A stretch of DNA of 64,000 bases from contig OZ241863.1 in the NCBI GenBank assembly GCA_965203055.1, positions 2,080,001 to 2,144,000 on the forward strand, read 5' to 3'. This DNA comes from Spirochaetia bacterium. Lineage in GTDB: Bacteria > Spirochaetota > Spirochaetia > SZUA-6 > Bin103. The notes under the pieces are model-generated. The model saw nothing but the letters and a program-made list of their open reading frames with translations, did no database searches and had not been told where the DNA came from. The position numbers and the translations under genes are program-made. Of this stretch, positions 31,028 through 62,400 are shown in pieces; within the stretch, counting starts at the first letter, position 1; each line of letters opens with the position of its first letter.

Positions 31028-31752
31028 TTACCAGGCCAGGCTGATGCCGCGTTGGCGGAGGTCTTCGCGGCGGCGTTGGTAGTCGGGCAGGACGCGGCCG
31101 ACGGCCTGCCAGTAGTCGCGGCCGTGGCCGCGGTGGCGCAGGTGGACCAGCTCGTGGACCACGACGTAGTCGATCAGCCGCATGGGGGCCTGGATGATGC
31201 GCCAGTTCAGGCGGATGGTGCCGTTGCGGTCGCAGCTCCCCCACCGCTTCTGCTGATCGGAGATGACGACGCGCGGCAGCTCGACGCCGGCCTTCGCGCG
31301 CCAGGCCGCCACCCGTTCCGGCAACCGCGCGGCCGCGTGCCGGCGAAACCAGGCGACCAAGGCGGCGCGCACGTGCTCCGTCCGCTCCGCTCCGCGGGGC
31401 GCGGGTACGTGCAGCCAACCGCCGCGCAGCTTGGCGGCGCCGGTCTCCCCCCCATGCACCTTCAGGCGATAATGGCGGCCGAGATAGAGCACGCTCTCGC
31501 CGCTGACGAACTCGCGCGGCGCGGGCGGCGGGTCGTGGGACTGTACGTGACGCCGCCGTTGCGCAATCCACGGCGCCTTGCGCTGCACCAGCGCGTCCAG
31601 CCGGCTGGTGGAAAACTGTTCCGGCGCCACCAGCATCACGCTGCCGTCAGACGCCACCGTGACCGCTACGGTCTTCTTTCGCCGCCGGCTGCGGCGGATG
31701 GCGTACGCGAGCCGGGTCCCGCCCCAGGTAACGGCGGAGGTCTCGGCCGCGG

Positions 31753-31756
<4 letters not shown>
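31028..31756 (-). CDS. M48/YgjP (DUF45) family metallopeptidase-like protein
   Basis: SGESVLYLG, KRWGSC, YVVVHELVHL (HExxH); coupled to the hsdR stop. Confidence 0.9.
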
Positions 31757-34769
<3,013 letters not shown>

Positions 34770-34773
<4 letters not shown>

Positions 34774-35999
34774 GCCGCCTCCGTATCCGGAGTCACGCGA
34801 AGCTCACCAGTGAGGAGCACGGACATCAATGCTCGCTTCAACCGTAGACGGGCGCGGACCTCGGCCCTCGCGGACCGTATAAAGCTATTGAACCCATCTG
34901 CGACGTCGACTATCTTCCGCTGTTCATCCAGAGATGGCAAAGGAACCGGAAGCTGGCCATATTCCGTCGCGTTGATGTTCGGTTGCGCCTGGGCGCGCTG
35001 GCGGACCGCCACCCAACGCCAATATACCGCGGTGTTGAGATATTCCTTCAGAAACGCCGGAAGCAGGACACTGCCTCTGGTGCGGAAGCGGACAAGGTAG
35101 CCGGCGAACGCGCAGCGCAAACCGGTATCGTCGTCAACATGAAGGTATGCTTTTCCGACAGTCCCGCTACGAGCGAACAAAATATCACCCGTTCGTAGCA
35201 AGTAACCGTCAGCATCCTGGTCATCGATTCCAACGGCCTCGTCTTTCAGTGCGCCATCATCGTCAATATCGGTGATGCGAATATAACGGATCCCGCCGGG
35301 CTCAAAGTCCCTCTTGGCGACGTTGGCACCGTATTGTCCGCGTGCAATACAAGCATCAGCGAGTGACCGAACGGTCCACCCGTTCGGAATACTCCCAATC
35401 TCTGTCTGCTTGAATCGCGTGTTCCGTCCCGGCAGTCCTCGCGTGAACAGTTCCTGCATCAGTCCGCGCTTGACGATCTTCGCTTGGTCGATGACCGCCT
35501 GGGTCTTCTCGATAGCGTCGTCCACCGAGGAAAGAATCGCGGCAATCTTACGCTGCTCGGAAAGAGGCGGCAGCAGAAACGTAAACTCGCCAAGCTGTTT
35601 CCACGACGTTCTGGGCATCTTTGTACCAGACGACGTGGCGATCGCATGCCACTGCAATCGATTCCACTGCGCAAGCTGGAGCAGGTAAGGCGAGTCAAGA
35701 CCGTCTTTACCAAATAGTGGCAATATGTCGGTCGAACATACTCCATCAAACGGAGCCGCCGCCGCCTTCCGTAGATTCGGGCGAAGTTTGCCGAACAGTA
35801 TATCTCCGGTGTAAAAGACGGTCTTTGCACTGGTCGCACTGCCGGCTGACGACCAGCCAAGAAGCGCGGGACGCCCCTGCGCGAGATGCTCAAGGGCGAC
35901 ATACGGACGGACATCTCCTGCGGCCGGCGTGACCTTCATCAGTCGCTGGTCGGCACACTCACAGAGCCGTCGATGCACCCATCCTTCAGGAGCCTTCAA
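34770..35999 (-). CDS. hsdS: Type I RM specificity subunit
   Basis: Two low-GC TRDs; LPPLSEQRKIAAIL...GLMQELFTRG...TEIGSIPNGW, LPSLDEQRKI...LMSVLLTGELRV. Confidence 0.95.
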
Positions 36000-36067: not shown

Positions 36068-36382
36068 TTATTCGGCGTGGCCGGCGCCATTGTCATCGAG
36101 CTGCTGCTTGAGGCGCCGGAACGTAGCCTCGTCGATGCCGGTGGCCGCCTCTATGATGGACCACGGTACATCGCGTTCCAGGAATCGCTGGATGGTATGC
36201 AACTGTCCCCTCATCTCGCCTTCCTGGCGGCCTTCTTGGCGGCCTTCCTGGCGGCCTTCTTGGCGGCCTTCCTGGCGGCCTTCCTGGCGGGCCTGTTGGC
36301 GGGCCTCCCGGATGCCCTCCCGAATGCCCTCCCGAACACCCTCCCGGATGCCCTCGTCGATCATCTTATGCACGTAGGTCAT
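36068..36382 (-). CDS. Predicted in-frame internal small protein (Rpn-S-like antitoxin), 104 aa
   Basis: AGGAGG at 36395-36390, 7 nt before in-frame ATG 36382. Confidence 0.6.
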   Translation of the reverse strand: MTYVHKMIDEGIREGVREGIREGIREARQQARQEGRQEGRQEGRQEGRQEGRQEGEMRGQLHTIQRFLERDVPWSIIEAATGIDEATFRRLKQQLDDNGAGHAE

Positions 36383-37180
36383 TATCTCTCCTCCTCGGCC
36401 CGGCACGGTCCGCCGCAGCGCGTCCGCGAACGCCTGCTGCTGCTCATTCGACTTCAGCGCCAGCAGCACGTACTCCACATGCAGCGCCACCCCGTCAAAC
36501 CCTGCGACCGGATACAGCTCGTCCACCAACCGTATCATTTGGTTGAGCAAGTCGTCCCAGCCCTCCGAGCCCGCGCGGCGGTACTCGGTCATCATCGCGA
36601 GCTGCGCCAGCCGCGCGCCCAGCGTCCCCTCCACCGACTCCGGGTTCTGCTCGGTCTGGTCGATCAGCAGGTGCTCGAACTGCGGTACCCAACCCAGGGC
36701 GGACTCCGCGCCGGCAACCAACTCCGCGAACTGCCGCGGGAAACGCCACGGTTCGGCTCCCTGATAGAATACCACCGGCACGATCAGCGGCAACCGCGGC
36801 TCCTGCTCGTGCTCGCGGTGCCATTGCATCCAGGCCATCAGGCAGTAATGCAGCAACCGCAGCCGCAGCCAGCGGTCGGGCGTGGACTGATGTTCGAGCA
36901 ACACGAGGACGAGCACCGGAGAGCCGGAGACCTCGCGCTCGACCGAGAACAGCAGGTCGGCCTCGCGGCCGCGCCAGTCGTCACTGACCAAGCGGCTGGG
37001 CAGATGGGTCAGAGTGGTCCACCGCAGCATGCGGGCGAGTTCCTGGGGCAGGCAGGAGCGCAGCAGGCCGGCGGCGTTCTCGCGGTCGGAGAACACGCGG
37101 TAGAAGTACTTGTCGTGCCGCTGGCTGACCGGCGGCGGGTCGGCTGACTGCGGTTGGTCCGATGCGTGATCGTCAGCCAT
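36068..37180 (-). CDS. Rpn family recombination-promoting nuclease (PD-(D/E)xK, YhgA-like)
   Basis: HDKYFYRVFS, EADLLFSV, LLEHQSTPD, LPLIVPVVFYQG, C-terminal EGRQ repeats. Confidence 0.92.
   Translation of the reverse strand: MADDHASDQPQSADPPPVSQRHDKYFYRVFSDRENAAGLLRSCLPQELARMLRWTTLTHLPSRLVSDDWRGREADLLFSVEREVSGSPVLVLVLLEHQSTPDRWLRLRLLHYCLMAWMQWHREHEQEPRLPLIVPVVFYQGAEPWRFPRQFAELVAGAESALGWVPQFEHLLIDQTEQNPESVEGTLGARLAQLAMMTEYRRAGSEGWDDLLNQMIRLVDELYPVAGFDGVALHVEYVLLALKSNEQQQAFADALRRTVPGRGGEIMTYVHKMIDEGIREGVREGIREGIREARQQARQEGRQEGRQEGRQEGRQEGRQEGEMRGQLHTIQRFLERDVPWSIIEAATGIDEATFRRLKQQLDDNGAGHAE
36218..36355 (-). repeat. 12-bp tandem repeats encoding (R/Q)EG(R/I/V) in the Rpn C-terminus
   Basis: CCTTCYTGGCGG-type units (QEGR about six times) and CCCTCCCGRATG-type units (REGI/V about four times). 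Confidence 0.9.
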
Positions 37181-37193
37181 GAACCCGATGGCG

Positions 37194-37222
37194 ACCGTAG
37201 CCCCTCGCTACGCCGGCGTCAA
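37194..37222 (-). promoter_or_regulatory. Sigma70-type promoter for the rpn gene
   Basis: TTGACG-17 nt-TACGGT on the minus strand. Confidence 0.5.
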
Positions 37223-37263
37223 GCCTTGCGTTCGTGTCGTGTCGTGTAGTCGGCGCAGGTCTG

Positions 37264-37503
37264 CTACTCGTCGCGAACAGAGTCCAGGTACAGGGTGTCG
37301 GGACATATATCTTGTCCGTGGGGCCAGACGACGGTTCCATTCACGGCCATTGCTCGCTCGAAGTACCTGTTGTCTTGGAGCTCTTGGAACACGCCAAAAT
37401 CCAACAGGGTCGAACAGTCGTAGACCCGTCGTTCATCGTTATCGAAGAGCATCCTCAGTCTATATCCCTCCATCGCGGCAACTCTCGATATTCTCGGATT
37501 CAT
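37264..37503 (-). CDS. DUF2442 domain protein (antitoxin-like), orphan
   Basis: YRLRMLFDNDERRVYD...GVFQELQD..YF...GTVVWPHGQDICPDTLY. Confidence 0.85.
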   Translation of the reverse strand: MNPRISRVAAMEGYRLRMLFDNDERRVYDCSTLLDFGVFQELQDNRYFERAMAVNGTVVWPHGQDICPDTLYLDSVRDE

Positions 37504-37513
37504 GGCTGAGTCT

Positions 37514-37616
37514 GCTAGCCGCCGTAGCCCAGCTCGGCGAGGTAGCGGTTCATGGTCGCTTCGGCGGCGGCGCGTTCCCGCTCCAGCTCGCGGAGCTTGC
37601 GCACCGCGGCCGCCAC
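37514..37616 (-). repeat. Duplicated 3' end of hsdM (copy of 38963-39065)
   Basis: 102/103 identical by direct comparison; single mismatch 37581 C vs 39030 T. Confidence 0.97.
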
Positions 37617-37709
37617 ACACCGCTGCGCCACCAGCCGGCGCGCTAAGGTCACCTCGTCCTCATCCGTAGGGCAGCGCCGGTGGGGAGAACATCGGAGTGG
37701 CGGTGGGCC

Positions 37710-37979
37710 TCACCATTGGAATGACCAGCCCATGCCGCCGGCGGCCTGCACCAGATCGGCCTCCCCGAGCTCGGCGGAGGGCGGCAGGATCAGGTGACTG
37801 GTAGTCGCCGTTTCCTCGTGCACCTCGATGTTGAACTCGGAGGGCACGGTCAGGCCGATTTCCGCCTTGATCGCGGTCTTGGGGTCCGTCATCAATTGGT
37901 TGCGAAACTCGCGGTCCGCGGTCGCCTTTTCGATCAGCTGCTGGCGCAGAGCGCTGACCGTCATCGTCTTCTCGCCCAT
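37710..37979 (-). CDS. NHLP-leader (proteusin-type) RiPP precursor A, core MGWSFQW
   Basis: LIEKATADREFRNQLMTDPKTAI...IEVHEET...HLILPP...ELGEADLVQAAGG leader ending in a double-Gly; GAGGA RBS. Confidence 0.88.
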   Translation of the reverse strand: MGEKTMTVSALRQQLIEKATADREFRNQLMTDPKTAIKAEIGLTVPSEFNIEVHEETATTSHLILPPSAELGEADLVQAAGGMGWSFQW

Positions 37980-38052
37980 ATTCCTCTCCTTCCGGCAGCT
38001 CGCGCAGCATCGATCACGGCAATGTCTGCGCGCTACTCACATTGTCAGATCA

Positions 38053-38081
38053 AATATAGGCAACGTTGGCCAAAGTGTCGA
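38053..38081 (-). promoter_or_regulatory. Sigma70-type promoter of precursor A
   Basis: TCGACA-17 nt-TATATT. Confidence 0.55.
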
Positions 38082-38182
38082 GCCCGTGCACCGAGACGAG
38101 AGAAAATGAGTTATCAGGAAATTCCCGTGGGTGGCGGCGGTGGGATTCCGGCGCCGCCCCACCCACAGCGCCGTCGATGCAC

Positions 38183-38329
38183 CTATCCATCAGGGAACGG
38201 ATGGTCGCGCGCCAGCGTGCTCAGCCACCGCGACACCTTGGCCAAGTCCGCCGCCATCAGGTTGCGGTCGAACCCGTACAGATACCGCTGCGCCACCAGC
38301 CGGCGCGCGAAGGTCACCTCGTCCTCATC
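38183..38329 (-). pseudogene. Degenerate fragment of a type IIG/Eco57I-like N6-adenine methyltransferase
   Basis: Translates DEDEVTFARRLVAQRYLYGFDRNLMAADLAKVSRWLSTLARDHPF, matching the LYGVDxNPMAVxLAKLSLWL motif of that family. Confidence 0.7.
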
Positions 38330-38612
38330 CGTAGGGCAGCGCCGGTGGGGTGAACGACCAGTCGATGCCGCCGGCGGCCTGCGCCAAGTCGGCTTCCCCG
38401 AGCTCGGCGGAGGGCGGCAGGATCAAGTGACCGGTAGTCGCCGTGTCCTGGTGCACCTCGACGTTGAACTCGGAGGGCACGGTCAGGCCGGTTTCCGCCT
38501 CGATCGCGGTCTTGGGGTCCGCCATCAATTGGTTGCGAAACTCGCGGTCCGCGGTCGCCTTTTCGATCAGTTGCTGGCGCAGAGCGCTGACCGTCATCGT
38601 CTTCTCGCCCAT
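38325..38612 (-). CDS. NHLP-leader (proteusin-type) RiPP precursor B, core IDWSFTPPALPYG
   Basis: Leader 74/82 aa identical to precursor A, ends AAGG; GGAGGAGAGGA RBS. Confidence 0.88.
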   Translation of the reverse strand: MGEKTMTVSALRQQLIEKATADREFRNQLMADPKTAIEAETGLTVPSEFNVEVHQDTATTGHLILPPSAELGEADLAQAAGGIDWSFTPPALPYG

Positions 38613-38692
38613 ATTCCTCTCCTCCCGGCAGCTCGCGCAGCATCAATCACGGCATGTCTGCCGCGGCGCGCGCTACTCACTTTGTCAGATCA

Positions 38693-38721
38693 GATATAGG
38701 ATACCGTTGGCCAAATGTCGA
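38693..38721 (-). promoter_or_regulatory. Sigma70-type promoter of precursor B
   Basis: TCGACA-17 nt-TATATC. Confidence 0.5.
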
Positions 38722-38821
38722 GCCCTTGCACCGAGAAAATGAGTTATCAGGTATTTCCGTGGGTAGCGACGGGCGGACTCCGGCGCCGCCCCACCAGGGA
38801 TGAGCCGGCGGTGACCTCAGT

Positions 38822-38944
38822 CAGGCGGTGTGGGAGTTGACCGCCGGGCAGCCGCGGCTGGTCAACGCGCTGGCCCGGGAGGCGTGCTCCGGCGGCGAAG
38901 CGGGGCGCGACCGCACCCGGACGATCAGCGCCGAGGCGGTCCGT
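38822..38944 (+). pseudogene. Internal fragment of an AAA-like ATPase of the same family as 10355-11935
   Basis: QAVWELTAGQPRLVNALAREACSGGEAGRDRTRTISAEAVR aligns with ETIWTRTRGQPWLVNALADETCFRDRGGRDRARPVTAGAVR. Confidence 0.75.
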
Positions 38945-38963
38945 TGTTCCACGAGCTGATCCG

Positions 38964-40832
38964 CTAGCCGCCGTAGCCCAGCTCGGCGAGGTAGCGGTTC
39001 ATGGTCGCTTCGGCGGCGGCGCGTTCCCGTTCCAGCTCGCGGAGCTTGCGCACCGCGGCCGCCACGTCGATCCGTTCTTCTTCCTCCGCGGTGTCCACGT
39101 AGCGGGTGATGTTCAGGTTCCAGTCGTTGCGCTCGATCTCGGCGACCGGCACCACCCGCGCGTACTTCTCCACGTCGGTCCAGGCGTGGAAGGTCCGGGC
39201 GATGCGCTCCAGGTCGCGGTCGCGCAGGCGATTCTGGTTGGTCCCTTCCTCGAACTCCCCGGAGGCGTCGATGAACAGCACCGCGCCTGCGCGCGCGGGC
39301 GGCTTGGCGCGGTTCAGCACCAGCACGGACGCCGGGATGCCGGTGCCGTAGAACAGGTTGGGCGCAAGGCCGATGACCGCCTCGAACAGGTCTTCTGTGA
39401 GCATGCCCTGGCGAATCTTCCCCTCCGCGCCGCCGCGGAACAGCACCCCGTGCGGCATCACCACGCCGAGCCGTCCGGCAGCGTTCAGTACCGCCACCAT
39501 GTGCTGCACGAACGCCAGGTCGCCCTTGGTCTTCGGCGGCAGGCCGAACCGGAAGCGCCCGTGGCCGTCGCTCTCGGCCACCTCGCGGCCCCACTCGTCG
39601 AGGCTGAACGGCGGATTGGCGATCACCCGGTCGTAGCGCAGCAGCTCGCCTTCATCCACCAGCTTCGGGTCGCGGATCGTGTCGCCCTTCTCGATGCGCG
39701 CGTCCGGCAGCCCGTGGAGCAGCATGTTCATCTTGCAGATCGCCCAGGTGCCGAGGTTCTTCTCCTGACCGTGGAGCGTCAGGTCATTCGGATTGCCGCC
39801 CTGCCGCTCGAGGTGATGGGCGCACTCGATCAGCATGCCGCCGGAGCCCGCGGTCGGGTCGCAGACGCGCATCCCCGCGGCCGGCGCCAGCAGCTCGACG
39901 ATCAGCTTGACGACCATGCGCGGGGTGTAGAACTCGCCGCCCTTCTTGCCGGCGTCGTCGGCGAACTGTTCGATCAGATATTCGTAGGCGCGGCCGAGCA
40001 GATCCGGCTCCGCCAAGCGGTCGTTGCGGAGCGAGACTTCGGAGAAGTGCCGCACCAGGCGCGCCAGCACGGTGTCGCGGTTGCGGGCGTCGCCGAGCTT
40101 GCGCTCGTCGTTGTAGTCGATGCCGGCCAGCACGCCTTCGAGCGCGCTGTTCTGTTCCTCCAGCGCCGCGCACGCCTTGTTGAGGGTCTCGCCGATGTTG
40201 GCGGCCGCTTCCCGGATGGCGCCCCACCGCGCCCGGTCGGGCACGAAGAACTGGTGCTCGTCGGGGTCGGTCCAGGCCACCTCTTGGGACACGCCGCCGG
40301 CAATCAGCTTCTCCGCTTCCTCCTCGAAGCGGTCCGACAGCCGCTTCAGGAACAGCATGCCGAAGATGTAGGTCTTGTAGTCGCTGCTGTCGATCGATCC
40401 GCGCAGGATGTCGGCGGCCGCCCACAGGTACTGTTCGAGCTGCGCCACGCTCAGGATGTCGGCCGCCCGCGCCGGCGCGACGGCCGTGGTCGGGTCCGGC
40501 GGCGGACGGGAGGCGCCGGCGGCGGCCGCCGGCGCGGGCGGCGCGGCGGGGCGGACTTGCATCGCCACCGGGACCGGCGCGGCGAGACGCGCGGCAAGAT
40601 CCGCCTTCCGGCGCCCGGAATCGTCCAGATCGAACGCCCGGCACAGTTCCTTCAGACGGTCTCGGGACAGCTCCTGCAGCAGCGCCGTGACCCGCACCTT
40701 GCGCGCGCGGGCCAGCGCGTCCGCGAGTTGCTCCTTGTCGCCGCGGCCGGCGACCGGCAGCGCGTAGCGGTCGGCGCCGGCGCGCAGCTCGCGGCTCGTC
40801 AGTGCGGAAAGGATGGCGCGTTTCGCCGGCAT
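38964..40832 (-). CDS. hsdM: Type I RM methyltransferase subunit with N-terminal extension
   Basis: LWAAADILRG, GEFYTP, DPTAGSGGML, ANPPF, PHGVLFRG, NLFYGTGIP. Confidence 0.97.
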   Translation of the reverse strand: MPAKRAILSALTSRELRAGADRYALPVAGRGDKEQLADALARARKVRVTALLQELSRDRLKELCRAFDLDDSGRRKADLAARLAAPVPVAMQVRPAAPPAPAAAAGASRPPPDPTTAVAPARAADILSVAQLEQYLWAAADILRGSIDSSDYKTYIFGMLFLKRLSDRFEEEAEKLIAGGVSQEVAWTDPDEHQFFVPDRARWGAIREAAANIGETLNKACAALEEQNSALEGVLAGIDYNDERKLGDARNRDTVLARLVRHFSEVSLRNDRLAEPDLLGRAYEYLIEQFADDAGKKGGEFYTPRMVVKLIVELLAPAAGMRVCDPTAGSGGMLIECAHHLERQGGNPNDLTLHGQEKNLGTWAICKMNMLLHGLPDARIEKGDTIRDPKLVDEGELLRYDRVIANPPFSLDEWGREVAESDGHGRFRFGLPPKTKGDLAFVQHMVAVLNAAGRLGVVMPHGVLFRGGAEGKIRQGMLTEDLFEAVIGLAPNLFYGTGIPASVLVLNRAKPPARAGAVLFIDASGEFEEGTNQNRLRDRDLERIARTFHAWTDVEKYARVVPVAEIERNDWNLNITRYVDTAEEEERIDVAAAVRKLRELERERAAAEATMNRYLAELGYGG

Positions 40833-60130: not shown

Positions 60131-61225
60131 ATGTCCGACACCTCCGACACCATCAAACTGGCGGTAGTACCCGGCGACGGCACCGGGCCGGAAGTCACCG
60201 CCGAGGCCTGCAAGGTCCTGGAAGCAGTGGCGCCGCTGGAAGGCGTTGCCTGCGAGCGGGTCGAATTCGATTACGGCGGCGACCGCTTTCTGGCCACCGG
60301 CGAGGTGATCAACAAGCGGCAGATCGACGAGCTGCGGCAGTTCGATGCCATCTATCTCGGCGCCATCGGCCACCCCGGGGTGCAGCCGGGGGTCCTCGAA
60401 AAGGGTCTGCTGTTGTCGATCCGGTTCCAGCTCGACCAGTACATCAACCTGCGGCCGGTCAAGCTCTACCCCGGGGTCGACTGTCCGCTCAAGGACAAAG
60501 GCCCGGAGCACATCCGGTTCGACGTGGTGCGCGAGAATACCGAAGACCTGTACTGCGGCGCCGGCGGCTTCCTGCGCAAGGACACGCCGCAGGAGATCGC
60601 CACCCAGGAGATGATCGCCACGCGCTTCGGGGTGGAGCGCTGCCTGCGCTGGGCGTTCGAACACTGCCGGCGCCGCAACGACCGCCGCCGGCTCACCCTG
60701 GTGCACAAGACCAACGTGCTGACCTACGCCGGCGATCTCTGGTACCGCGCCTTCCAGGAGATCGGCGCCGCGGAGTTCCCGGACGTCGAACGCGACTACA
60801 ACCACATCGACGCCGCCTGCATGTGGTTCGTCAAGAATCCCGAATTCTACGACACCATCGTGGTGCCCAACATGTTCGGCGACATCATCACCGACATCGG
60901 CGCCATGATTCAGGGCGGCCTCGGCGTGTCCGCCGGCGGCAACATCAACCCCGACCCGGGCGGCTGCAGCATGTTCGAGTGCATGGGCGGCTCGGCGCCC
61001 AAGTATACCGGCCAGAACGTCATCAACCCGATTGCCGCCATCGCCGCCATGGGGATGCTGCTCACCGTGCTCGGCGATCAGAAGGGACTGCCCAACCTGA
61101 GCCGCGCCGGGCAGCGGGTCGAAGACGCCATCGGCAAGACCACCCCGAAGATGAAGAGCATGTCGGCGGGGCGGATGGGCCATTCGACCAGCGAAGTGGG
61201 CGACCTGGTGGCCGCGGCGCTGTAG
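60131..61225 (+). CDS. leuB: 3-isopropylmalate dehydrogenase
   Basis: PGDGTGPEV, QYINLRP, VRENTE, HKTNVL, NMFGDIITD, GGSAP. Confidence 0.85.
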   Translation: MSDTSDTIKLAVVPGDGTGPEVTAEACKVLEAVAPLEGVACERVEFDYGGDRFLATGEVINKRQIDELRQFDAIYLGAIGHPGVQPGVLEKGLLLSIRFQLDQYINLRPVKLYPGVDCPLKDKGPEHIRFDVVRENTEDLYCGAGGFLRKDTPQEIATQEMIATRFGVERCLRWAFEHCRRRNDRRRLTLVHKTNVLTYAGDLWYRAFQEIGAAEFPDVERDYNHIDAACMWFVKNPEFYDTIVVPNMFGDIITDIGAMIQGGLGVSAGGNINPDPGGCSMFECMGGSAPKYTGQNVINPIAAIAAMGMLLTVLGDQKGLPNLSRAGQRVEDAIGKTTPKMKSMSAGRMGHSTSEVGDLVAAAL

Positions 61226-61245
61226 ACGGCGGGGGTGTTGCCGGC

Positions 61246-62400
61246 GTGAGCGAGCAGCGTCCGCCGCTTGCGGTGGCCCCGCCGGTGCGGCCGATGTTGG
61301 CCAGGCGCGTGGCCGCGCTGCCGGCGGGAGATCACTGGTCGTTCGAGCCCAAGTGGGACGGCTTTCGCACCCTGGTGTTCCGCAACGGCGCGGAGCTGTT
61401 GTTGCAGAGCCGCGACCTCAAGCCGCTGAACCGCTACTTTCCCGAATTGGTCGAGCCGCTGCTGGCGCAGCTCCCGGAGCGCTGCGTGGTGGACGGCGAA
61501 CTGGTGATCGCCGGCGCCGGCGGGCTGGAGTTCGAGTCGTTGCAGCTGCGCATCCATCCCGCGGCCTCGCGGGTGGCGTTGCTGGCCGCCCGCACGCCGG
61601 CGGCGCTGGTGGCGTGGGACCTGCTGTGCCTGGCGGACCGCGACCTGACCGCAGCGCCGTTCGCCGACCGCCGCGGCCTCCTGGAGCAGGCGCTGAGCGC
61701 GGCCCGGGCGCCGCTGCATCTCACGCCCGTCACCCGCGACCGCAGCCGCGCCGAAGACTGGTTCGAGCGCTTCGAAGGCGCCGGCCTGGACGGCATCATG
61801 GCGAAGGACCGCGCCGCAGCCTACCAGCCGGGCAAGCGCGCCATGCTCAAGGTGAAGCACCGGCGCACCGCGGATTGCGTGGTGGCCGGGCTGCGCTGGC
61901 ACCGCGGGGCGCCGGAGGAACGGGTGGGATCGCTGCTCCTCGGACTGTTCGACGACCGGCGGCGGCTGCATCACGTCGGCGTCGCGGGGAGCTTCAGCAC
62001 CGCCCGCCGGCGCGCCCTGGTCGAGGAGCTGCGCCCCTACCGGGAGGTGGACGAGACCCATCCGTGGCACGCCCGGATCAGCGCCGCAGGCGCCGCGGCC
62101 GCGCCGGCCGGTGCGGAGGCGCCGCAGTCCGCGCCCGGGCTGCGCGTTCCGGGCGGCGCCAGCCGCTGGAGCGGCGGCAAGGACCTGAGCTGGGTGCCGT
62201 TGCGGCCGGAACTGGTGGTCGAGGTGAGCTACGACCACATGCAGGGGACGCGCCTGCGCCACACCGCTCAATTCGTGCGCTGGCGCCCCGACAAGCCTCC
62301 CGCCGAGTGCACCTACGACCAGCTCGAAGTCACCCCGCCCTACGAACTGGCGCGCATCTTCGGCATCTCCGGCATATCCGGCATATCCGGCTCCGCTTGA
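61246..62400 (+). CDS. ligC: ATP-dependent DNA ligase, LigC-like
   Basis: RPMLA, EPKWDGFR, VDGEL, GLDGIMAK, MLKVK, RWRPDK. Confidence 0.9.
   Translation: MSEQRPPLAVAPPVRPMLARRVAALPAGDHWSFEPKWDGFRTLVFRNGAELLLQSRDLKPLNRYFPELVEPLLAQLPERCVVDGELVIAGAGGLEFESLQLRIHPAASRVALLAARTPAALVAWDLLCLADRDLTAAPFADRRGLLEQALSAARAPLHLTPVTRDRSRAEDWFERFEGAGLDGIMAKDRAAAYQPGKRAMLKVKHRRTADCVVAGLRWHRGAPEERVGSLLLGLFDDRRRLHHVGVAGSFSTARRRALVEELRPYREVDETHPWHARISAAGAAAAPAGAEAPQSAPGLRVPGGASRWSGGKDLSWVPLRPELVVEVSYDHMQGTRLRHTAQFVRWRPDKPPAECTYDQLEVTPPYELARIFGISGISGISGSA

Follow-up and report, generated by a model that had tools for sequence, protein, structure and literature searches.

How two peptide-precursor genes came to lie between duplicate copies of the end of a restriction-modification gene is the question raised by the type I hsd operon in the window analysed here, a stretch of 64,000 nucleotides from a spirochaetal genome (G000, 4.56 Mb). 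The initial annotation had noticed that the last 103 bp of hsdM recur, with one mismatch, behind two NHLP precursor cassettes, and had read the arrangement as a module that entered recently through the hsdM tail with a Campbell-type geometry. The repeat was found at the same coordinates and with the same mismatch. We propose that the islet most probably owes its place to recombination by the host itself, as an insertion with long target duplication, and not to a recombinase encoded by the element.

The repeat and its support in public assemblies

The repeat consists of the final 102 nt of hsdM, stop codon included, plus 1 nt (Table 1), and its single mismatch, C37581/T39030, is synonymous in the hsdM frame (GAG/GAA). 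A whole-genome search with the 103-mer, a check proposed in the initial annotation, recovered exactly two copies and thus none beyond the islet, and in 20 shuffles of the 20 kb around the locus the longest exact repeat was 14-18 nt. Judged from one mismatch in 103 positions, the duplication of the tail is young, in agreement with the recent entry first suggested. At the mismatch site the gene copy carries the base of the relative G011 and the stranded copy that of G010, a single site being too little to call donor and resident. A donor patch within hsdM was considered and rejected, the sliding identity to G011 being flat at 93-100%.

Both outer joints are bridged by public contigs, the one between hsdM and the cargo in runs X5, X13 and X14, and the one between the cargo and the stranded tail in X6. 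These runs span three studies (X5 and X14 in P4, X13 in P5, X6 in P1), one of which could have supplied the assembly itself. The bridging piece of X13 measures 673 bp, with 0 differences and a depth of 2; X2, whose pieces mostly show 0 differences, is possibly the source sample and was left out of the support. The initial annotation had named an assembly artefact among the findings that would refute its reading. In favour of an artefact are the very repeat-rich genome, the A-B joint of the cassettes (38112-38195), which lies without cover in the contigs showing the outer joints, and the fact that no single listed contig spans the whole islet. However, the bridging of the outer joints in runs of three studies, together with the 85% identity of the two cassettes, which are therefore not collapsed copies, means that the arrangement is almost certainly not artefactual. 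Cover of the DUF2442 gene is absent in X13, X14 and X15, which is as uninformative as the uncovered A-B stretch (38112-38172).

A mosaic cargo

The interval between the tails measures 1,346 bp, and the unit including one repeat 1,449 bp. The initial description of two NHLP cassettes with neither integrase nor transposase is borne out, as the ORF list contains no frame of integrase or transposase size in the interval and no recombinase was found within the islet by the ORF list and profile searches. What had been overlooked is how much of the interval recurs in the genome: 1,230 of its 1,346 bp have matches elsewhere at 80% identity or above, and scraps of three further genes are among them. 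NHLP cassettes are pieced together in the cargo with decayed remnants of type IIG, AAA and hsdS genes, a patchwork that seems to predate the repeat. The internal joints look older to judge from divergence: the 137-bp type IIG scrap, which is 9-12 differences away from each of the stretch's 7 further copies, has 6 private changes, and the 121-bp AAA scrap departs from its match at 4 positions, compared with a single one in the 103 bp of the tails. Relative to the locus G000:2065732-2065852, the AAA scrap meets the NHLP upstream region via a deletion of ~750 bp at a 3-nt microhomology (CTG). The sigma70-like match upstream of precursor B (10/12) is the sole one in 37200-39150, where shuffles expect 0.4.

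A MITE or another non-autonomous transposon was also considered and rejected, since terminal inverted repeats are missing (at 80% identity or more and at least 40 bits, the islet does not match itself in inverted orientation) and the duplication is 103 bp long, not short. Elsewhere in the genome there is an HNH element bounded by terminal inverted repeats and carrying type IIG scraps, to which the islet yielded no match.

Table 1. Features of the islet and of the surrounding hsd operon, in window positions
Feature	Position	Strand	Remarks
YgjP-like metallopeptidase gene	31028..31756	-	
hsdR	31753..34773	-	
hsdS	34770..35999	-	
Rpn/YhgA-like gene	36068..37180	-	multicopy family in genome; outside the repeats
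DUF2442 gene	37264..37503	-	52.9% GC; directly after hsdM in G010
Stranded copy of hsdM tail	37514..37616	-	joint with the cargo bridged by X6 record 26
Second scrap of the same type IIG gene, ~50 bp	37617..37666	-	blunt joint to stranded tail
NHLP precursor B, 89 aa	37710..37979	-	TIGR03793 above cut-off; core MGWSFQW
Cassette B upstream region	37980..38163	-	contains sigma70-like match 38081-38053
hsdS 5'-end piece, 35 bp	38160..38194	-	88.6% identical to the operon's own hsdS at 35956-35990
Scrap of multicopy type IIG (Eco57I/MmeI-like) RM gene, 137 bp	38195..38331	-	6 private changes
NHLP precursor A, 95 aa	38325..38612	-	TIGR03793 above cut-off; core after Gly-Gly = IDWSFTPPALPYG
Cassette A upstream region	38613..38821	-	38356-38786 96% identical to NHLP locus G000:2066611-2067038, ~50 kb off
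Internal scrap of AAA-ATPase gene, 121 bp	38822..38942	+	4 differences from G000:2065732-2065852
Filler, 20 bp	38943..38962	.	best match 17/20 to inverted YgjP-like gene piece; too short to assign
hsdM-borne copy of 103-bp tail	38963..39065	-	last 102 nt incl. stop + 1 nt
hsdM, type I methyltransferase subunit	38964..40832	-	intact, 622 aa; N6_Mtase, HsdM_N; N-terminal SAP domain

Relatives and a second insertion

An hsdM orthologue is present in four relatives (G010, G011, G012 and G015), and a second tail in none of them. The check for other hsdM tails with different cargo, suggested in the initial annotation, found no such insertion in these four. These single-copy targets are empty sites between species, with hsdM genes 86-97% identical. 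In G010 hsdM is followed by the DUF2442 gene and in G015 by hsdS; across the five genomes the gap between hsdM and hsdS is filled differently in each, and a second tail occurs only in G000. An empty or donor allele of the same species was not seen in the contigs examined, nor is there a joint skipping the 1,449 bp among the joints listed for 8 runs. Two contigs (X2 record 13 and X5 record 29) read from the repeat into hsdM unbroken, and pieces on the DUF2442 side stop in the repeat, a pattern that fits an empty allele and equally a graph simplification, and that was not counted.

The same cassette, with an identical core, is found in G011 at an unrelated gene, between copies of 102 and 101 bp that comprise the last 75 nt of an AAA_14/DUF4143 gene and 27 nt more. 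In G015 the end of this gene is single within the 3.2-kb locus fetched. In X14 both joints of the G011 type are seen again as loose ends, as is one of the two in X6; locus L052, with a 102-bp repeat, is the same locus and was counted once. The joint between the NHLP gene and the type IIG scrap is common to G011 and the islet, and no other source copy of it exists in G000. The 3' ends of the cassette differ in three copies, with 137, ~50 and ~41 nt of type IIG scrap, and in G011 the junction of tail and cassette overlaps the scrap by 9 nt, that at 37616/37617 being blunt. These two are the only clear cases of NHLP cargo among 41 overlapping NHLP loci scanned. In G012 an NHLP gene with a 61-bp repeat (L081) is part of a 1.65-kb tandem duplication and is ambiguous, and JGI metagenomes contain five distant NHLP loci (41-44%), none with flanking repeats.

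Other tail copies and the recombination genes of the host

Tail repeats in two copies occur downstream at 4 of 3,152 crude ORF ends, upstream at none and likewise at none of 1,673 control positions within genes, an excess that is small (4 vs 0) and rests on crude ORF calls; a fifth two-copy case lies at G000:2156491/2162108. Three other tail cases were inspected, with unrelated cargo throughout and indels in at least two of their stranded copies. Besides the islet, the genome holds four gene-tail copies whose cargo is unrelated. Tails in many copies are unbiased (7 downstream, 6 upstream). A first genome-wide list of at least 442 repeat pairs was too noisy, and stricter filters kept 3 of 364 and 22 of 854.

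Genes for RecA, for Ku adjoining an ATP-dependent ligase (Ku/LigD), for ComEC and for DprA are present. In this 95.9% complete genome only two tyrosine recombinases (PF00589) were found, which flank dprA and are probably XerC/D, and the resolvase profile PF00239 has 0 matches, the recombinase search having covered these two profiles. One broken and one sub-threshold reverse-transcriptase match were also recorded.

Mechanism of insertion

It can be hypothesised that the islet arose in two steps. In an older one, joints at microhomologies would have fused an NHLP gene to type IIG and other scraps, and the cassette would then have spread between co-resident relatives. In a recent one, an incoming piece of DNA starting 103 bp before the hsdM stop, with the cargo behind, would have been either circularised by end joining and inserted by one RecA crossover, or taken up by recombination at the hsdM end combined with an illegitimate joint stepping back into the gene. 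The insertion was probably either a single crossover, with a circle formed on one occasion, or an event with one anchor; as far as the sequence goes, both routes would yield the order gene, cargo, tail and cannot be separated. The Campbell-type geometry first invoked is in part upheld, in that an intact gene followed by cargo and a stranded tail fits a single crossover with a small circle; the dedicated hsdM-tail module that went with it is unsupported, the target in G011 being unrelated and the ends variable. Recombination by RecA between the repeats could remove the cargo or multiply it, but there is no indication of a regulated excision. Against insertion by host recombination it may be held that selection would leave an intact hsdM under any mechanism, and that classic one-anchor recombination mostly deletes and seldom duplicates (PMC3240628, excerpt).

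The in-genome sources of most of the interval are what would be expected from replicative template switching in break or fork repair, in which synthesis, on reaching the hsdM stop, would have switched to a pre-formed cassette region at another place on the chromosome and then resumed 103 bp upstream. A single event would in this way account for the two outer joints, with no DNA entering the cell. The AAA scrap, cassette A and a type IIG gene share one locus ~50 kb away, the hsdS piece has its counterpart at a distance of 2.2 kb, and several joints have short microhomologies. Yet the pieces are 3-11% off their in-genome sources, against 1% in the repeat, and the NHLP-IIG joint is common to G011 without a source copy in G000; the cargo was therefore apparently assembled earlier and elsewhere, and we consider template switching unlikely. 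The location of the second insertion bears on two further explanations. That a non-autonomous integrative module used the hsdM tail as its att site, with a recombinase acting in trans, would account for the restored gene, the displaced tail, the nearly identical repeats and the empty-like site in G010. This reading is already weakened by the unrelated target in G011, the varying cassette ends, the lack of an hsdM-tail insertion in all four relatives and a recombinase repertoire of just two probable XerC/D proteins with no PF00239 resolvase, and is now quite improbable; an att site specific to hsdM was rejected on the first and third of these grounds. A remnant of a larger tandem, in which unequal recombination had brought two type I operons or alleles together and deletions had then left only the tail of the second hsdM, would explain the hsdS 5' scrap and possibly the YgjP scrap in the cargo, and it accords with decayed pieces of the same operon at 2.94 Mb and with the frequency of deletions at these loci. 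It nevertheless leaves unexplained the same layout and repeat length at the AAA_14 tail of G011, and the tail pair is far younger than the hsdS scrap (1/103 vs 4/35), which makes such a remnant very improbable.

Relation to described insertions

Campbell-type, integrase-driven elements enter the 3' ends of genes, restoring the gene and displacing its tail, whereas the islet has no integrase, no att common to both insertions and no fixed ends. Insertion with long target duplication, on which Nobusato et al. reportedly worked earlier (in 2000), is a different matter. The class is defined by a recombinase-free insert of <20 kb and a repeat of >30 bp, in many cases of ~100 bp (PMC2853133, excerpt), and the geometry of the islet had already been described. 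The islet has a duplication of 103 bp, an insert of 1,346 bp without any other mobile element, variable targets (the tails of hsdM in G000 and of AAA_14/DUF4143 in G011) and, in comparisons between species, a single-copy empty target in G010, G011, G012 and G015. It shares with the published cases the variable targets, the RM context and, at the level of other species, the single-copy empty site (PMC2853133, excerpt). In those cases, however, RM genes are the cargo, whereas here an RM gene is the target, RiPP precursors and scraps are the cargo, R and M genes are represented only by type IIG scraps of 137 bp and ~50 bp, and the same cargo also sits at the tail of a non-RM gene. The islet works like this class, yet does not belong among its RM units.

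Circular molecules that integrated in E. coli by a single crossover left duplications of varying length, from 109 to 950 bp. The explanation preferred by the authors is that the molecules were linearised (by EcoK or I-SceI), partly degraded and closed into circles again (PMC3240628, excerpt). Homology-facilitated illegitimate recombination (HFIR) has also been proposed to build gene arrays behind conserved genes (PMC3240628 and PMC5361080, excerpts). What these systems have in common with the islet is that they are host-driven, use one stretch of homology and form joints with little or no microhomology; they concern engineered plasmids in E. coli or are inferred for T6SS arrays, and true HFIR mostly deletes target DNA, which is here duplicated.

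The phenomenon is thus published (Furuta 2010, PMC2853133, excerpt), and what is new is that RiPP precursors form the cargo, behind the tails of two unrelated genes, and that a joint supplied the end of a core peptide; no report of RiPP precursors inserted in an hsd locus was found in the literature searched, mostly outside subscription journals. The islet is probably an ordinary scar left by recombination in the cell and does not reveal a new mobile element. The enzymology of the class is unsettled, and here the same cargo lies behind two unrelated gene ends, in two genomes that are related and are represented together in metagenomes. This speaks for a duplication that stems from how the host recombines at the ends of genes, and against one that depends on restriction genes as cargo. 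The 1,449-bp unit, with its near-perfect 103-bp ends, is an easy target for a circle test in existing sponge DNA.

The precursors and their maturation

The two precursors score 62.9 and 68.2 bits with the TIGR03793 profile (cut-off 50.9), and in both the NHLP leader is followed by a Gly-Gly motif and a short core. The last codon and the stop of the core of precursor A are supplied by the type IIG scrap, and this core, IDWSFTPPALPYG, is identical in the G011 insertion. TIGR03793 leader, Gly-Gly motif, short core and origin in sponge-metagenome DNA are shared with the NHLP (proteusin-type) precursors of sponge symbionts (PMC9426513, excerpt), from which the islet differs in having no maturase, cores without Cys and a core A completed by a recombination joint. 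The islet also illustrates concretely how orphan RiPP precursors may multiply and acquire new cores. A more far-reaching proposal, which we regard as doubtful, is that sponge-symbiotic spirochaetes spread stand-alone NHLP cassettes across species by recombinase-free capture behind the ends of genes, with illegitimate joints writing new cores and with shared maturases and an exporter in trans making new products of them, as a selected system of peptide diversification driven by recombination; if so, the core of precursor A, ending in methyltransferase-derived sequence and identical in two species, would exemplify a joint-written core.

The leader of precursor B is nearest to that of the G011 insertion, with 7 of 82 codons different; 1 of these changes is synonymous and 6 are non-synonymous, numbers too small for a conclusion and not indicative of purifying selection. 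The ORF list contains no modifying enzyme inside the islet; the maturation and export of A and B are predicted to depend on enzymes and an exporter that act in trans and have their genes at other places in the genome. An NHLP-type exporter gene scores above the TIGR03796 cut-off at G000:954887-957028. Prenylation of RiPPs can depend on the leader (PMC12715784, excerpt). A candidate maturase of 375 aa, without a Pfam match, follows an NHLP paralog at G000:3856631, 1.7 Mb off; it is a lead only, with prenyltransferase-like neighbours at a score of 0.88-0.90.

Results

The structure of the islet is real. The initial annotation had described the last 103 bp of hsdM as recurring with one mismatch, and this was borne out: the copies differ only at C37581/T39030 and are the only two in the single-contig genome (4.56 Mb, 68.8% GC), while the longest exact repeat in shuffled sequence was 14-18 nt (20/20 shuffles). 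The annotated cargo also held, the 1,346-bp interval encoding two NHLP precursors that both pass the TIGR03793 cut-off, with no recombinase among its ORFs. Reading along the minus strand, the order is hsdM, islet, DUF2442, Rpn gene, hsdS, hsdR and a YgjP-like gene. The Rpn gene contains 12-bp tandem repeats (QEGR-type), and its paralogs occupy dozens of sites in the genome. Public runs contain DNA of this genome, and several of them carry the label sponge metagenome; the nearest NHLP relatives among titled records lie in a Spirochaetia MAG.

The cargo is a mosaic, with 1,230 of its 1,346 bp having matches of 80% or above at other genomic sites. Outward from hsdM come 20 unassigned bp, 121 bp from an AAA-ATPase gene in opposite orientation, cassette A (precursor A and its upstream region), a 137-bp scrap of a multicopy type IIG RM gene, which supplies the final codon and the stop of precursor A, 35 bp resembling the hsdS start, cassette B, about 50 bp from the same type IIG gene, and the stranded hsdM tail. 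One locus ~50 kb away holds counterparts of the AAA scrap and of cassette A (96%) together with a type IIG gene; compared with it, the islet lacks ~750 bp, a deletion with a CTG microhomology at its joint, and has the IIG piece in inverted orientation. The end of the donor-like core and the start of the IIG scrap have GACGAGGTGA in common, an overlap that would be a plausible seed for the NHLP-IIG joint. The IIG scrap carries 6 private changes in 137 bp (9-12 differences from 7 other copies) and the AAA scrap 4 differences from its counterpart, a divergence by which the internal joints look older than the tail pair.

An hsdM orthologue (86-97%) was found in 4 of 23 family genomes. The annotation had asked whether other hsdM tails carry different cargo; what lies behind hsdM does differ (hsdS directly in G015, DUF2442 in G010, Rpn remnants in G011, other genes in G012), but a second tail occurs in none of the four. 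The most telling finding comes from G011, where the same cassette (core IDWSFTPPALPYG, with less of the IIG tail) is enclosed at another site by direct repeats of 102 and 101 bp. The repeat consists of the final 75 nt of an AAA_14/DUF4143 gene with an internal deletion, and a further 27 nt; one base and the stop are missing from the stranded copy. G015 has the whole gene, with such an end once within the locus compared. Joints of the G011 type reappear as loose contig ends, both in run X14 and one in X6. The cargo runs against the host gene in G011 and codirectionally here, and the tail-cassette joint, a 9-nt overlap with the IIG scrap in G011, is blunt here. Flanking repeats were confined, among 41 partly overlapping NHLP loci, to the two of the islet, to G011 and to a single ambiguous case in G012; most NHLP genes are therefore without them.

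Between this genome and G011, listed in a different genus, hsdR, hsdM and an ABC transporter block share 95-97% identity, which suggests recent exchange. The hsdM-hsdS gap of G011 also holds several Rpn remnants beside ORFs that, by their motifs, resemble an IS66 element. In G012 an NHLP gene and the ORF behind it form a 1.65-kb tandem duplication (93%), in which a 61-bp repeat flanks one of the copies.

When ORFs were called crudely, 4 of 3,152 ORF ends had a two-copy tail repeat on their downstream side and none had one upstream; the 1,673 mid-gene controls gave no such repeat. Multicopy tails have no bias (7 downstream, 6 upstream). A separate filter gave a fifth case, an 87-bp duplication with 1 mismatch that stops exactly at the stop codon and encloses 5.5 kb. 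This case and the islet, with one mismatch each, look like the youngest. The other three enclose Rpn genes, a PIN-like gene and an HNH element (named by resemblance), unrelated to the islet; they are older, and at least two have indels in the stranded tail. The excess is small, yet points to a general habit of the genome. Elsewhere, 147-bp direct repeats enclose a degraded remnant of the same type I operon, comprising Rpn, the hsdS start and fragments of hsdR and YgjP.

Coordinates of features (bare numbers, window, which is G000:C1:2080001-2144000; G000, this genome; C1, its contig; L, compared loci)
Feature	Position
hsdM tail, gene-borne	38963-39065
hsdM tail, stranded	37514-37616
Blunt tail-cargo joint	37616/37617
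Precursor A	38325-38612
Precursor B	37710-37979
Contigs over hsdM-cargo joint: X5; X13; X14	38822-38996; 38451-39123; 38845-39037
Contig over cargo-tail joint: X6	37559-37674
Segment lacking contig cover in four runs	38112-38172
12-bp repeats in the Rpn gene	36194-36325
Lone ATP-dependent ligase gene	~61200-62400 (PF04679, G000:2141918)
Blocks 95-97% identical to G011	31259-34829 and 38969-40472 (vs L021); L020:6689-9507
IS66-like ORFs, Rpn remnants (G011)	L021:5171-7578
Locus with tandem duplication (L081, L094)	G012:935753-942134
87-bp tail duplication	C1:2156491-2156577; 2162108-2162194
Other tail cases, ORF ends	C1:795839 (+), 2318803 (-), 2790313 (+)
Decayed type I piece	C1:2936177-2942145
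NHLP exporter	G000:954887
NHLP paralog before 375-aa gene	G000:3856631
Type IIG copies	C1:980244, 1405314, 1769429, 2071060, 2493215, 2594726, 2838833, 4383952
Repeated element, examples	C1:945992, 1108547, 1335757, 2171293, 3268777
NHLP gene adjoining the element	1335947 (genome)

Discussion

The islet is a known kind of insertion, and its new part is the RiPP-precursor cargo; among the papers listed in the literature searches, none describes RiPP precursors carried in this way. In size and repeats it agrees with insertions with long target duplication as set out in PMC2853133, but the cargo there is R and M genes. The islet behaves as members of this class do but does not count among their RM units. 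Set against the features of site-specific elements and of MITEs, it matches neither.

We consider host recombination in two steps the likely origin. A cassette would have been assembled earlier by microhomology joints and then passed between co-resident relatives; a fragment beginning inside the hsdM tail would have integrated recently, either by end joining and then a single crossover, or in a one-anchor event whose joint stepped back into the gene. RecA, ComEC, DprA and Ku beside an ATP-dependent ligase are encoded in the genome; another such ligase gene stands alone in the window. For the circle route there is an experimental precedent: PMC3240628 reports duplications in 56/60 Lac- clones of E. 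coli (109-950 bp among 14 sequenced). One-anchor wording is applied to T6SS arrays in PMC5361080. Template switching is an unlikely source of the arrangement. Of the recombinase families searched, PF00589 and PF00239, the genome has two tyrosine recombinases, on both sides of dprA, and no PF00239 resolvase; a site-specific module is improbable. Since host recombination is favoured over it, the circular module that the annotation proposed to have entered through the hsdM tail survives in part: a circle may once have existed as a by-product, but not as an hsdM-seeking element.

Decay of a tandem operon appears quite improbable. Among contigs from eight public runs, some cross the two outer joints, the X13 contig with 0 differences at depth 2, and the core of precursor B is covered by X6 and X15. 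The studies behind these bridging and covering runs are P1, P4, P5 and P6, and the assembly may stem from one of them. Among the pieces listed, none from the eight runs spans the whole islet, and one segment lacks cover at 96% likeness in four runs. We regard an assembly artefact as extremely improbable.

Regarding function, NHLP matches number 12 in the genome; 7 are close paralogs and one is frameshifted. An NHLP exporter gene scores above cut-off. One paralog is followed by a gene for a 375-aa protein without a Pfam match, whose Atlas neighbours include prenyltransferases (scores 0.88-0.90, low recognition); it could be a candidate prenyltransferase-like partner, as a lead only. NHLP precursors are described as common in sponge symbionts in PMC9426513, and leader-dependent prenylation is known from PMC12715784. 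One promoter-like site is predicted upstream of precursor B.

The type IIG (Eco57I/MmeI-like) RM gene exists in eight full or partly deleted copies with 82-95% DNA identity and divergent C-terminal regions. A repeated element, present at about 25 sites, opens with a conserved end motif and carries pieces of the type IIG 3' end that are deleted to varying extents; a single conserved ORF often comes next. One of the copies adjoins an NHLP gene, and the end motif also lies upstream of at least two type IIG genes.
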